Below are positions 21,641-24,669 of a stretch of 57,002 nucleotides of DNA, piece after piece. The notes beneath the pieces were generated by a model that saw only the letters and a list, made by a program, of their open reading frames with translations, was not told where the DNA came from and made no database searches. This DNA comes from an uncultured Bacilli bacterium (GTDB lineage: Bacteria; Bacillota_I; Bacilli_A; RF39; UBA660). The first letter of the stretch is position 1. Every line of letters begins with the position of its first letter. The stretch is taken from NCBI GenBank assembly GCA_947628065.1, contig CANQYK010000002.1, forward strand, positions 1-57,002, written 5' to 3'. The translations under genes were made by a program, and so were the position numbers.

Positions 21641-21759
21641 TAATAAAAAGTATTAGTGTGGGTACTAATGCTTTTTTCTTGTGGAAATTTTAAAAAAAAG
21701 AAAAAAAATTAAAAAAAGTTCGATTTACTGTTTATATAGATAGTAGGAGGTGTTTTGTG

Positions 21760-23841
21760 ATGCGATTAAAAACAGTCCTACAGACACGAAAAAGTGATTG
21801 TGGTATTGCTTGTTTGGAATGTATTTTATCCTATTATCAAAACAATGTTCCCAAAGAATATCTTTATCAAAAAACATTCTTTGATGGAAATGGTACAACG
21901 ATGTATGGATTAAAACAAGCGCTTGATGGTTTAGGATTTGAAACGGAGGCGAAAAAAGGAAATCTTGAAGATGAGAAGCCCTTAGTGTTTCCTTTCATTG
22001 CTCACCTTAATTTAGAAAAAGAAAAGAAAAATTCCCATTATGTGGTCGTTTCTTCTTATCAAGAAAAAGAGGTTCGAGTAATGGATCCTGCTTGTGGAAA
22101 AAAGAAGATAGAAAAAAAGCAATTTTTAGATATGGCAAGTGGTTATTATTTGTTTGTAAGACCAACTTCTAGTTGTAAACAGATTGTATTAGAGAAAAGA
22201 ATCGAACGGGATATTAAGGCTTATTTTAAAAATCACAAACTTTTCTTTCAATTCTTTTTCATTCTTTCGTTTTTTTGTTTTTCTTTTGAGTTGCTTAGCC
22301 TTTTTGAATTGAAAGTTTTTGTGAATCAAGCAATCTTACCAAGAAGAATGGAAAATGTTTTCGTTTGTTTCTCTTTCTTTTTTCTCCTTCTTCTTTTAAA
22401 AGAGGTTAGTTCTTATCTTCTCCTAATCTATCAAGCACGATCAAATTATGAGTTAAATCTACAATTAAAGAATAAAGTTTTAAGACACATTATAACACTT
22501 CCTTTTCTTTACTATAAGACGACAGAAAAAGGAAAATTTATCTCGCTTTTACAAGATATTGAATTCCTTAGTTCGTTTTTGAGTTTTTCTCTACCTTCTT
22601 TGCTTCGAAGTATTTTTCTTTTTTCCTTTTTAACCATTTACTTTTTTCTAGTCTCGAAAACGTTCTTCTTACCTTTGTTATGTTCGAATCTTGTTTTCTT
22701 ACTTTTTGTTTTCTTAGAGAAAAAAGGATTAAATAGTGATCTTGTTCAAACGAAAAAAGCACAGGATGTTTTTCATAACCAAGTTCTTCTCTTGTTTCCC
22801 TATGTTGATGTTTTAAAAGGAAATCATTTGGAAACTATATTTATAAAACGTCTTAGAAATATCAATAAAAAGGTTTCCCAATCTACTTATCAATTAGAGA
22901 AAAGAAGAGCGAAAGAGAAGAATATCTTATCCTTTTTAGAACAAGGAATGTATCTTGTTTTGTTTAGTTTTTTATCTTATTTATTCATAAACGAAAAGAT
23001 AAAAAGCTTTGCTACCTTTCTTTTGTTAGAAGGATTCCTTGTTAGTATTTTAAAAGAAGAAGAAAATTTTATGCTCTTTCTTTTATCTTACAAAGAATAC
23101 AAAAATGCGAAAAAAAGACTAGATGAACTCTTTTATGTAAAAAAGGAACTCCTTCTTCCAAATAAAGACTTTCTACCACCTAGTAGTTATACCTTACAAT
23201 TTCATAACGTATCCTATGACTATGGATTAAGATGTGTATTAAAAAATATTACCTTAACAATCGAAGAAGGGAAACATATTTTCTTTTATGGTCAAAGTGG
23301 AAGTGGAAAAAGTACCTTCTTTCAATTAATTGGGCGTTATTTAGAACCAAAGTACGGTGAAATTTCTCTTGGTGGAAGGGATATTACCCATTATAACTTG
23401 GACCAGTTAAGAAAAATTGTAACGTATGTATCGCTTGATGTGTTAGTAGAAAGTGGTTCGATAAAGGACAATATAACACTAAAAGAAGAAAGAAAAGATA
23501 TCTCACTAGAGAAAATCGTATGGATTAGTGGACTAGATCAAGTATTAAAAAGAAAAAAGCAAAGTTTATATACTTTTGTATCCGAAGAAGGAAATAACTA
23601 TAGTTCTGGTGAAAAAGCAAGAATTGCGCTTGCAAGAGCACTTTACAAAGATAGTAAGATTTATCTTTTTGATGAATGTTTTAGTAGTTTGGATATGAAG
23701 AGTGAAAGAACGATTTTAAAGCGATTGTTTCAAGAATATAAGGGAAAAACCATTCTTTATATTTCCCATCGTCTTACCAGTAAAGATTTGTTTGATAAAG
23801 TATATTATGTGAAAAAAGGAGAGATGTATGAAAAAAAGTAA
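21760..23841 (+). CDS. Bacteriocin-processing ABC transporter with N-terminal C39 peptidase domain
   Basis: C39 motifs QTRKSDCGIACL and HYVVV...MDPACG. Six-TM region. Walker A GQSGSGKST, signature SSGEKARIA, Walker B LFDECFSSLD. Confidence 0.88.
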   Translation: MRLKTVLQTRKSDCGIACLECILSYYQNNVPKEYLYQKTFFDGNGTTMYGLKQALDGLGFETEAKKGNLEDEKPLVFPFIAHLNLEKEKKNSHYVVVSSYQEKEVRVMDPACGKKKIEKKQFLDMASGYYLFVRPTSSCKQIVLEKRIERDIKAYFKNHKLFFQFFFILSFFCFSFELLSLFELKVFVNQAILPRRMENVFVCFSFFFLLLLLKEVSSYLLLIYQARSNYELNLQLKNKVLRHIITLPFLYYKTTEKGKFISLLQDIEFLSSFLSFSLPSLLRSIFLFSFLTIYFFLVSKTFFLPLLCSNLVFLLFVFLEKKGLNSDLVQTKKAQDVFHNQVLLLFPYVDVLKGNHLETIFIKRLRNINKKVSQSTYQLEKRRAKEKNILSFLEQGMYLVLFSFLSYLFINEKIKSFATFLLLEGFLVSILKEEENFMLFLLSYKEYKNAKKRLDELFYVKKELLLPNKDFLPPSSYTLQFHNVSYDYGLRCVLKNITLTIEEGKHIFFYGQSGSGKSTFFQLIGRYLEPKYGEISLGGRDITHYNLDQLRKIVTYVSLDVLVESGSIKDNITLKEERKDISLEKIVWISGLDQVLKRKKQSLYTFVSEEGNNYSSGEKARIALARALYKDSKIYLFDECFSSLDMKSERTILKRLFQEYKGKTILYISHRLTSKDLFDKVYYVKKGEMYEKK

Positions 23842-24202
23842 AAATTCTTATCTTCTTTTTGGTGTTACCATTTTCTTTTTTCTCTTCGTATTTTTTGGTT
23901 TTCTTTTTTTAAACAAAGTAACCATTCGTACTTATTTCACGCTTACTGCAATCCCCTTAACAGAAAATGAGGTTGTAGTGGCAGCTGATCTTGATAAGAA
24001 AATAGAAAAAGGAAAATTCTTCTATCTTAAAAACAAAAAGATATTTTATGAGATTGAAGATATTACCAAAGAAGACAATTATCATTACTATGTATTATCG
24101 TTATCAAAAAAAATAGATAGAAGTAAGAATATGGATATTTCTATACCCTTAGAGAAAAAATCCTTACTTAAAATACTCTATCAGAATTGGAGGTTAGAAT
24201 GA
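23828..24202 (+). CDS. Small membrane-anchored protein (possible bacteriocin export accessory or immunity protein)
   Basis: It overlaps the ABC gene's stop and the first peptide gene's start (ATGA). It has one N-terminal TM. The function is inferred only from position. Confidence 0.45.
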   Translation: MKKSKNSYLLFGVTIFFFLFVFFGFLFLNKVTIRTYFTLTAIPLTENEVVVAADLDKKIEKGKFFYLKNKKIFYEIEDITKEDNYHYYVLSLSKKIDRSKNMDISIPLEKKSLLKILYQNWRLE

Positions 24203-24351
24203 AAAGAATAACAGAAGAAGAATTAAAAAGAATCAAAGGGGGAGAGTTTACCATTTGGATGGGACTTGGAATTGCAGCAGTGATCGTCTTTTTGTCTGGT
24301 GTGATTGATGGCTTTGTAAATCCGAAAACTTGTGGAGGTGATTTGAATTGA
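24199..24351 (+). CDS. Double-glycine-leader class II bacteriocin-like peptide (50 aa)
   Basis: Absent from the ORF track. GGAGG RBS. Product is MKRITEEELKRIKGG | EFTIWMGLGIAAVIVFLSGVIDGFVNPKTCGGDLN. The leader matches the ..EL..I.GG consensus. Confidence 0.75.
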   Translation: MKRITEEELKRIKGGEFTIWMGLGIAAVIVFLSGVIDGFVNPKTCGGDLN

Positions 24352-24518
24352 AAACAGTAGAAAAAAAAGAGTTATTAACCGTAAAAGGAGGCGTAACCTT
24401 AAGTGGTACCGTTTTAGAACAATTTAATATTTTAATGGAATTGTTATTAGAAGCAGGAAGACAGGTAGGATCTTCGATTCGAAGAATAGGAAGCAAAAGT
24501 ATATGTCCAATCGAATAA
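24348..24518 (+). CDS. Double-glycine-leader peptide (56 aa), second bacteriocin or pheromone-like peptide
   Basis: Absent from the ORF track. TTG start lies 6 nt after a GGAGGTGA RBS. Product is MKTVEKKELLTVKGG | VTLSGTVLEQFNILMELLLEAGRQVGSSIRRIGSKSICPIE. Confidence 0.65.
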   Translation: MKTVEKKELLTVKGGVTLSGTVLEQFNILMELLLEAGRQVGSSIRRIGSKSICPIE

Positions 24519-24639
24519 GAAAGCTTTTTTTCATCGCTTTTCTTCTCTTTCTTTTTCTTATCTTGTTCCTTTTTGGACGCTTTTTTGGAGAATTTTTGGC
24601 TAGAATTCTTTGAAAAATGTAAAAAGTTGTAAAAATTTG

Positions 24640-24669
24640 TTGTCATAATAGGTAAAATGGTGTTATAAT
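24640..24669 (+). promoter_or_regulatory. Sigma-A promoter of rpsU
   Basis: TTGTCA (24640-24645), an 18-nt spacer, then TATAAT (24664-24669). Confidence 0.55.

Follow-up and report, generated by a model that had tools for sequence, protein, structure and literature searches.

The window analysed here is a stretch of 57,002 nucleotides (contig CANQYK010000002.1 of assembly GCA_947628065.1) from an uncultured Bacilli bacterium, represented by a metagenome-assembled genome (MAG) from a rabbit gut metagenome. At positions 21757–24613 of its forward strand, five overlapping genes encode an exporter, an accessory membrane protein, two short prepeptides (pepA and pepB) and a further small membrane protein (tm3). 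On balance, the sequence features lead us to read this locus as a class IIb-like two-peptide export operon in the style of lactococcin G with a toxin-type role, for which the killing or lysis of other cells would be the most likely function. Its distribution marks the cassette as an old core trait, passed on vertically within an order of gut Bacilli with reduced genomes, and not as a mobile competition island. The genes are as follows.

21757 (GTG) or 21760 (ATG) to 23841, + strand: exporter gene, 694 amino acids
23828–24202, + strand: accessory membrane protein gene, 124 amino acids
24199–24351, + strand: pepA prepeptide gene, 50 amino acids; leader 24199–24243 (15 residues), mature part of 35 residues
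24348–24518, + strand: pepB prepeptide gene, 56 amino acids, TTG start; leader 24348–24392 (15 residues), mature part of 41 residues
24503–24613, + strand: tm3 gene, 36 amino acids, overlapping the end of pepB by 16 nt

Class IIb bacteriocins are defined by two peptide genes, an immunity gene, a gene for an ATP-binding cassette (ABC) transporter and an accessory gene in one operon (PMC2850506). The features of this class found here are adjacent peptide genes within one operon, a 15-residue double-glycine leader on each prepeptide, a dedicated peptidase-containing ABC transporter (PCAT), a GxxxG motif in each of the two peptides and a small membrane protein gene downstream.

Operon structure

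The five genes form a single translationally coupled operon. Successive genes overlap by 14 nt (exporter and accessory gene), by ATGA (accessory gene and pepA), by TTGA (pepA and pepB, which share 4 nt) and by 16 nt (pepB and tm3). A Shine–Dalgarno sequence is found at each start, with AGGAGG lying 7–10 nt upstream of the exporter start and GGAGGTGA lying 6 nt upstream of that of pepB. A near-consensus promoter, TTGTCA-18-TATAAT, is located at 24640–24669 and serves rpsU downstream; because rpsU has this promoter of its own, the end of the operon is placed at 24613. An earlier note on this DNA had described a C39-peptidase ABC exporter, a coupled 124-residue membrane protein and two overlapping small double-glycine-leader genes with ribosome-binding sites, the second with a TTG start, and had ended the locus at 24518. 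These elements were all recovered in our analysis, the membrane protein gene at 23828–24202 with its 14 nt overlap with the exporter gene, but the fifth gene moves the end of the locus to 24613.

The TTG start of pepB is corroborated by the orthologues, which begin at the homologous codon (ATG in 22 of 25 and TTG in three of 25). Both peptide genes are missing from an open reading frame (ORF) list with a minimum length of 60 residues for no other reason than that they are too short, and both are listed once the minimum is set to 30 residues. In the genus of the window the terminal codons of pepA (Cys-Gly-Gly-Asp/Glu, TGTGGAGGTGA; positions 24336–24347 of the window) double as the Shine–Dalgarno sequence of pepB, and this double use may be a reason for the acidic pepA tail that is specific to the genus.

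The exporter and its cargo

The exporter consists of an N-terminal C39 cysteine peptidase (Peptidase_C39, PF03412, 2.3e-32), a six-helix ABC membrane domain (ABC_membrane, PF00664) and a C-terminal ATPase (ABC_tran, PF00005, 2.6e-24). Over its full length it is collinear with PCAT1 from Clostridium thermocellum (PDB entry 4ry2, 5e-58) and with streptococcal ComA (PDB entry 8hf4). Residues Gln9, Cys15, His94 and Asp110 align with Gln11, Cys17, His96 and Asp112 of the ComA peptidase domain, which are the oxyanion Gln and the catalytic Cys, His and Asp. All of the parts of a PCAT are therefore present, namely a C39 domain with its catalytic residues, the ABC membrane domain and the ATPase. The exporter shares this four-residue site and the ABC motifs with its structurally characterized relatives (PDB entries 4ry2, 8hf4 and 3k8u) but is strongly diverged from them: its score on TIGR01193 is 259 bits, where the cutoff is 524, and identity between exporters across the genus is just 35–42%. 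By these comparisons, the exporter is a divergent member of the PCAT family.

The exporter carries the sole true C39 domain of the genome (1.55 Mb, 93% complete), and pepA is the only protein of the genome to match a double-glycine-leader model; pepA and pepB are therefore its evident cargo. By analogy with the family, the C39 domain would recognize both leaders through hydrophobic residues at positions −4, −7 and −12 and Glu at −8 and would cut after Gly-Gly, and the ABC part would expel both mature peptides, hydrophobic pepA (35 residues) and amphipathic pepB (41 residues).

Leaders and mature peptides

Conservation of the peptides was assessed across 145 roughly genus-level loci. Both prepeptides carry a leader of the class IIb kind, 15 residues long and ending in a double glycine, with Gly-Gly at positions −1 and −2 in 136/145 pepA and 143/145 pepB sequences. 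The leader consensus has Ile/Val at −4, Leu/Met at −7, Glu at −8 and Leu/Ile at −12, and the two leaders of the window have Gly-Gly, Ile/Val at −4, Leu at −7, Glu at −8 and Ile/Val/Leu at −12.

Mature pepA of the window (35 residues, 3655 Da, pI 4.05, net charge −2) is a single hydrophobic helix with the conserved pattern F...G...G...P..C, which includes a GxxxG motif with an embedded acidic residue and a conserved tail of the form acid-Gly-x-x-x-Pro-x-x-Cys. Its invariant residues are spaced i, i+3, i+7, i+11 and i+14 and thus lie on one face of the helix. Mature pepB (41 residues, 4459 Da, pI 6.3, net charge 0) opens with an amphipathic helix and continues with Gly-basic-x-x-Gly, Ser-x-Ile-Arg-Arg and, at the C-terminus, a Cys. 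The GxxxG motif stands at fixed alignment columns in both peptides, as expected of class IIb, and is conserved in 141/145 pepA and 145/145 pepB sequences. The Pro of pepA is conserved in 142/145 loci and the Arg-Arg pair of pepB in 130/145. The single Cys near the C-terminus of each peptide, to which the earlier note had drawn attention, proves to be conserved in 143/145 pepA and 144/145 pepB sequences, and the loci that lack it have truncated sequences of the peptide concerned. The note had also described the first mature peptide as hydrophobic and the second as amphipathic and cationic; the first two descriptions hold, whereas pepB of the window, with a net charge of 0, is not cationic. Across the family, the mean net charge is +0.24 for pepA and +2.4 for pepB.

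Within the genus, the ratio of nonsynonymous to synonymous substitution rates (dN/dS) is 0.10 for pepA and 0.09–0.18 for pepB, compared with 0.03–0.05 for rpsU, and the mature parts of both peptides are conserved at least as well as the leaders. From these values, pepA and pepB are real genes under strong purifying selection.

Window pepA falls slightly short of two class IIb models, with 31 bits on NF038034 (cutoff 37) and 19.2 bits on TIGR03949 (cutoff 21.5). Of its orthologues, 17 of 25 match TIGR03949 and at least six exceed the cutoff, at 22.3–27.8 bits. Some also reach 20–23 bits on the NCBIfam model of the MPN313 family, against a cutoff of 100, with only the leader and the start of the helix covered. 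No curated family in Pfam or NCBIfam was found for pepB; in a set of 1.84 billion representatives its own family forms 470 clusters at 50% identity, almost all of them 52–60 residues long. A public ORF of 102 residues (P0134) contains a complete pepA prepeptide fused to a complete pepB prepeptide, with the second double-glycine leader internal. The fusion could be real or could be a sequencing or assembly error, and counts as a point in favour of a functional link between the two peptides. We also note ORFs of 139–160 residues in complete genomes of 0.8–1.0 Mb (G035, G484, G505, G607 and G691; family f12), the first 30 residues of which match the leader of the pepB profile (E values of 1e-4 to 1e-3); in these Mycoplasma-sized genomes they may represent double-glycine-leader cargo proteins in Mollicutes.

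The fifth gene

The earlier note saw no obvious immunity gene at this locus. This statement has to be revised, as tm3 at 24503–24613 is a candidate and a paralogue of pepB. In its product, a basic N-terminus is followed by a single transmembrane helix and by the C-terminal segment Gly-x-x-x-Gly-x-x-(Ile/Leu)-Arg, and an ORF of this type (36–59 residues) begins 6–15 nt ahead of the pepB stop codon in 16 of the 26 loci examined in detail. In a profile–profile comparison the last 30 columns of tm3 align with the last 30 columns of pepB (hhalign probability 92.6%, E value 4.5e-7), compared with 0.2% for a control comparison of tm3 with pepA, and the pepB profile recovers tm3 as its second match in several genomes (E values of 8e-7 to 3e-4). 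GxxxG occurs within the last 30 residues of 70/71 tm3 proteins, and a Cys within the last eight residues of 43/71; tm3 of the window has no Cys. The gene evolves faster than those of the peptides, with a within-genus dN/dS of 0.29–0.45, and its product matches no Pfam or NCBIfam family.

According to the positive-inside rule, the pepB-like segment of tm3 would face outward, where exported pepA arrives. On this basis, tm3 is likely to be a self-protection decoy derived from pepB, and hence the candidate immunity gene of the operon: as an anchored paralogue of the C-terminal half of pepB with its N-terminus inside, it would occupy the pepB-binding face of pepA in the producer membrane. It has the position and size expected of an immunity gene, and it is absent from 75 of 146 loci (see below); where it has been lost, either the producers would be intrinsically insensitive or the peptides would not be self-toxic.

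Proven immunity proteins with a single helix are of comparable size (CbnZ, 42 residues; BrcI, 53; EnkIaz, 52; AbpIM, 55; PMC6957408), where CbnZ, encoded directly downstream of cbnXY, is termed the shortest known. These systems share with the present locus a gene for a tiny single-transmembrane protein directly 3′ of the peptide genes, and the immunity conferred by their proteins was demonstrated experimentally (PMC6957408). At 36 residues tm3 is shorter than CbnZ, and it lacks an orthologue in about half of the related loci. Homology between immunity protein and peptide is seen for tm3 and pepB, but the available part of PMC6957408 makes no mention of it for proteins of the CbnZ type. A literature search on decoy-type immunity found nothing relevant.

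GxxxG motifs and cysteines

GxxxG is a hallmark of class IIb, the two peptides of which are thought to form a membrane-spanning helix–helix pair through this motif (PMC2850506). An acidic residue within the pepA motif stands opposite a basic residue within the pepB motif in 109/145 loci, the exceptions noted being one Lys/Glu swap (L056) and two acid/acid pairs. This pair of columns ranks first among all pairs between the mature parts by mutual information with average product correction (MI-APC), at 0.164, whereas 30 shuffled pairings reached at most 0.155; this is a marginal signal measured against a null that does not preserve phylogeny. Because an acidic residue placed midway along a hydrophobic helix requires a counterpart, the simplest interpretation, and a suggestive one, is an ion pair buried where the GxxxG motifs cross. 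The strongest couplings between the peptides lie at equivalent leader positions (0.20–0.22), and may reflect either two leaders tracking one peptidase or common descent. Prediction of a complex between the mature parts of pepA and pepB from their own alignments gave a score of 0.07 relative to a mark of 0.32, which is not evidence either way. Outside the cell, pepA and pepB would insert into the membrane as a helix–helix pair packed through GxxxG, with the acid of pepA and the base of pepB buried within the motifs and both C-terminal cysteines at the same end, giving a membrane-perturbing complex.

The invariance of the cysteines argues for a role of these residues. It keeps alive the intermolecular disulfide that the earlier note had raised, in which case the active species would be a covalent heterodimer, pepA-S-S-pepB, and in the producer the C-terminal Cys of tm3 would capture pepA. 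We regard this addition to the model as doubtful. Each peptide has its single Cys near the C-terminus (143/145 and 144/145, with truncated exceptions) on the same helix face as its GxxxG motif, and 43/71 tm3 proteins also end in Cys. However, a DsbA-like protein, DsbB and VKOR were not found in the genome, although at 93% completeness this does not prove their absence, the habitat is the anoxic gut, and tm3 of the window contains no Cys to capture pepA. The cysteines could instead serve packing, metal binding or other chemistry, and our literature search yielded no class IIb bacteriocin with an intermolecular disulfide.

The accessory protein

The AlphaFold2 model of the accessory protein (mean predicted local distance difference test score, pLDDT, 91.9) shows a transmembrane helix (residues ~5–30), a seven-stranded extracytoplasmic β-barrel (32–112) and a C-terminal helix. 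Foldseek found no match to this model in the Protein Data Bank at E ≤ 0.001. An exhaustive structural scan with VIA-align gave Z scores of 5.3–6.6 to the β-barrel domains of many periplasmic adaptor proteins (BesA, ZneB, MexA, EmrA, CusB, MacA, AcrA and Spr0693), values that all lie below Z 8 and are equalled by generic small barrels. The nearest named clusters in the protein-language-model Atlas are LcnD_C/AprE-barrel/ComB at 0.81–0.83, and no Pfam or NCBIfam family was found for the protein. Its within-genus dN/dS is 0.24–0.38. With 124 residues forming an anchor, one small barrel and a helix, the protein is too short to contain the lipoyl and α-hairpin domains of HlyD/LcnD/ComB adaptors.

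Taken together, the structural and Atlas signals, each of which is below proof of kinship, suggest a minimal LcnD/ComB/HlyD-like adaptor, and the anchored barrel might act as such an adaptor for the exporter. The locus thus has the dedicated cleaving ABC transporter with an accessory gene that is characteristic of class IIb, with family support for the accessory protein at the level of these scores.

Distribution and conservation

An orthologue of the exporter is present in 23 of 24 further genomes of the genus, and the gene content and order of the five-gene cassette, ahead of rpsU and yqfC, are identical in all of the same-genus loci examined. The pepB profile finds matches in 188 of 200 genera of the GTDB family (151 of 158 high-quality genomes) and in 230 of 250 high-quality genomes of the order. 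In a class-level search with a broader profile, all 49 of 49 members of the main family were matched, and so was one genome from another order in which the synteny is kept; the rest of the class gave only leader-level matches. A locus from a different order of the same class (L080; G030:C9) has the arrangement exporter, accessory gene (162 residues), pepA, pepB, rpsU and yqfC. As this arrangement lies outside the order, either the cassette is older than the order or the limits of the order are artificial. The host genomes are uncultured gut MAGs of 0.5–1.6 Mb, labelled Clostridium sp. CAG:451, Candidatus Onthousia or uncultured Tenericutes/Bacilli.

The components were counted over 146 roughly genus-level loci, with the following result.

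pepB: 146/146 loci
pepA adjacent to pepB: 144/146 loci
accessory protein (by profile): 94/146 loci
tm3: 71/146 loci

The invariant core of the cassette is thus the exporter, pepA and pepB, adjoining rpsU in most of the loci examined in detail. Conservation of the small ORFs beside homologous exporters had been proposed in the earlier note as a check on the prediction, and was found in 144–146 of the 146 loci. tm3 and the accessory protein tend to co-occur (both in 59 loci, neither in 40, the accessory protein only in 35 and tm3 only in 12), with the caveat that these counts are not phylogenetically independent. The sole split pair among the 146 loci is found in a complete 1.49 Mb genome (L064; G210:C1), in which a 216-residue ORF lies between pepA and pepB and tm3 is absent. 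The pattern as a whole indicates that the cassette is vertically inherited from the ancestor of the order.

Comparison with known systems

Operons of the lactococcin G type (PMC2850506) share with the window two adjacent genes with double-glycine leaders, a dedicated C39-ABC exporter encoded in one operon with an accessory protein, a gene for a small membrane protein beside the peptides, GxxxG in both peptides and a predicted helical, membrane-inserting pair. The locus differs from them in several respects. The exporter gene comes first in the order, and the accessory protein, at 124 residues, is far shorter than the typical LcnD/ComB type. Each peptide has one invariant Cys, the window peptides are not cationic and, apart from near-threshold model matches, the mature parts show no sequence homology. 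The cassette here belongs to the chromosomal core of an entire order rather than to individual strains or plasmids. The candidate immunity protein has 36 residues, one helix and a paralogous relationship to a peptide, whereas LagC has four helices (PMC6957408).

Accessory proteins of the LcnD/ComB type typically have several hundred residues. The lactobin A/cerein 7B family (TIGR03949) shares with pepA the leader and a Gly-rich hydrophobic N-terminal part, but the C-terminal D-G-x-x-x-P-x-x-C tail of pepA lies outside the matched part and pepB has no counterpart family. The contact-dependent two-protein bacteriocin CdzC/CdzD of Caulobacter and its immunity protein CdzI (PMC5380434) offer a further parallel, with two secreted proteins of the glycine-zipper/GxxxG type, ABC-type secretion with an adaptor and, in CdzI, a small transmembrane immunity protein comparable to tm3. 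The Cdz toxins stay on the producer surface (PMC5380434), and such a model would suit the very hydrophobic pepA. However, the Cdz system uses Gram-negative type I secretion of larger, aggregate-forming proteins with no conserved Cys pair and no demonstrated homology.

Alternative interpretations

Several points weigh against the toxin-type reading. Near-universal conservation (188/200 genera, 230/250 genomes and 49/49 family members) is atypical of bacteriocins, and the same holds for selection on the mature parts, which is purifying and not diversifying. The window peptides are anionic (pepA) or neutral (pepB), whereas the mature peptides of class IIb two-peptide bacteriocins are typically cationic. 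Roughly half of the genus-level loci have no tm3 and a third or so have no accessory protein, while the exporter, pepA and pepB persist. The covariation at GxxxG is marginal and the fold matches of the accessory protein are below Z 8, as described above. Finally, the sequencing runs found to match the locus were DNA only (rabbit gut metagenomes), with no RNA run listed. The proposal of the earlier note that this is a two-peptide bacteriocin therefore holds in so far as the class IIb features that can be tested on sequence are mostly present, but a bacteriocin for competition with relatives is a weakened reading, because the cassette is a near-universal, syntenic core trait of the order.

A less probable but serious alternative is that the same export takes place without antagonism and serves a conserved physiological function of the lineage. 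Examples would be a heteromeric complex of pepA, pepB and anchored tm3 at the surface or membrane acting in envelope or ion homeostasis, in attachment or in nutrient scavenging from neighbouring or host cells. Such a function would suit an order-wide, syntenic, single-copy cassette in genomes reduced to 0.5–1.6 Mb, a dN/dS of about 0.1 with mature parts conserved at least as well as the leaders, the retention of the exporter and both peptides at loci that have lost tm3 and the accessory protein, and a net positive charge that is weak or absent. That tm3 has the motif of pepB and often its C-terminal Cys (43/71) is also what might be expected of alternative subunits of one complex. Against this, most of the sequence features fit class IIb, pepA orthologues exceed the cutoff of a class IIb family, and no partner genes of another pathway are conserved beside the cassette in the loci examined. 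To our knowledge, no housekeeping system delivers two double-glycine-leader peptides by a PCAT. Conservation across a species also occurs among two-peptide bacteriocins, an example being pneumococcal CibAB with its small immunity protein CibC.

In its fullest form, this non-antagonistic alternative would make the cassette not a competition weapon but a lineage-defining membrane module of a reduced-genome, partly wall-deficient order of gut Bacilli, an indispensable surface or membrane complex; we consider this tentative. Two exported peptides and an anchored paralogue would be held together by packing of their GxxxG motifs, by a buried ion pair and by terminal cysteines, and might serve, for example, in nutrient extraction from neighbouring cells or in management of the cell's own envelope. 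If this were true, the anchored paralogue would represent an undescribed `self-decoy' principle, in which immunity or regulation is derived from a toxin peptide.

A pheromone role of the ComC/BlpC type for either peptide or for both, with the PCAT as exporter of the quorum-sensing signal, is improbable, and we reject it because no sensor is linked to the operon or lies in its conserved flanks. The double-glycine leaders give weak ComC/EntF/BlpC-like matches, but these span the leader only, and a transmembrane-like peptide of 35 residues that carries GxxxG does not resemble a pheromone. In none of the loci examined is a kinase or regulator conserved near the cassette. LytTR regulators and a kinase of the HPK10 type do occur in the genome, but the pair on contig C11 adjoins its own AgrB (PF04647, 1.7e-33) and therefore has its own Agr-type signal. 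The earlier note was accordingly right that no two-component regulator is adjacent, but its option of a bacteriocin paired with a pheromone finds no support. The Agr-type locus itself (G000 contig C11; L086:3849-6654) comprises a LytTR regulator of 255 residues and an HPK10-type kinase of 431 residues, with AgrB on the opposite strand.

Flanking genes

The cassette sits between sufU and rpsU on the + strand, as the earlier note had placed it, with SufS and SufU encoded upstream and ribosomal protein S21 (rpsU), YqfC and YqfD downstream (Pfam). Intact genes for YqfC (YabP family) and YqfD (stage IV sporulation, 5e-71) are present at 24964–26387 of the window, in a genome of 1.55 Mb; mixed sporulation status has been reported for these reduced Bacilli orders (PMC10868615). 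In several genomes of the same genus (L004, L006, L007 and L009–L011), a gene for a 155–158-residue helix-turn-helix protein of the XRE type lies divergently upstream of the exporter, in the place taken by the suf operon in the window. It is not kept across the family and may encode a lineage-specific regulator.

Implications

As a rule, bacteriocin loci are patchily distributed, mobile and quick to change. In the present order, a class IIb-like pair of peptides and its exporter are held under strong purifying selection at one site in essentially every genus. Conservation of this kind in shrunken genomes of about 1 Mb implies a function of the pair on which its hosts depend. Whether that is a weapon or another conserved function, we lean towards the toxin type and hold the other to be a possibility of lower rank. 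New here is a two-peptide subfamily in which each peptide has one invariant Cys and an intramembrane acid–base pair apparently lies inside the GxxxG motifs; it is further distinguished by its order-wide core status, its putative miniature adaptor and its peptide-derived anchored paralogue. The candidate immunity protein would be a membrane-anchored paralogue of a toxin peptide, a mechanism that we did not find described in the literature searched. A literature search on bacteriocins of RFN20 found nothing relevant. The locus is a further case of conserved genes of fewer than 60 residues escaping ordinary ORF tracks, and it provides a testable handle on the ecology of an abundant, uncultured gut lineage.

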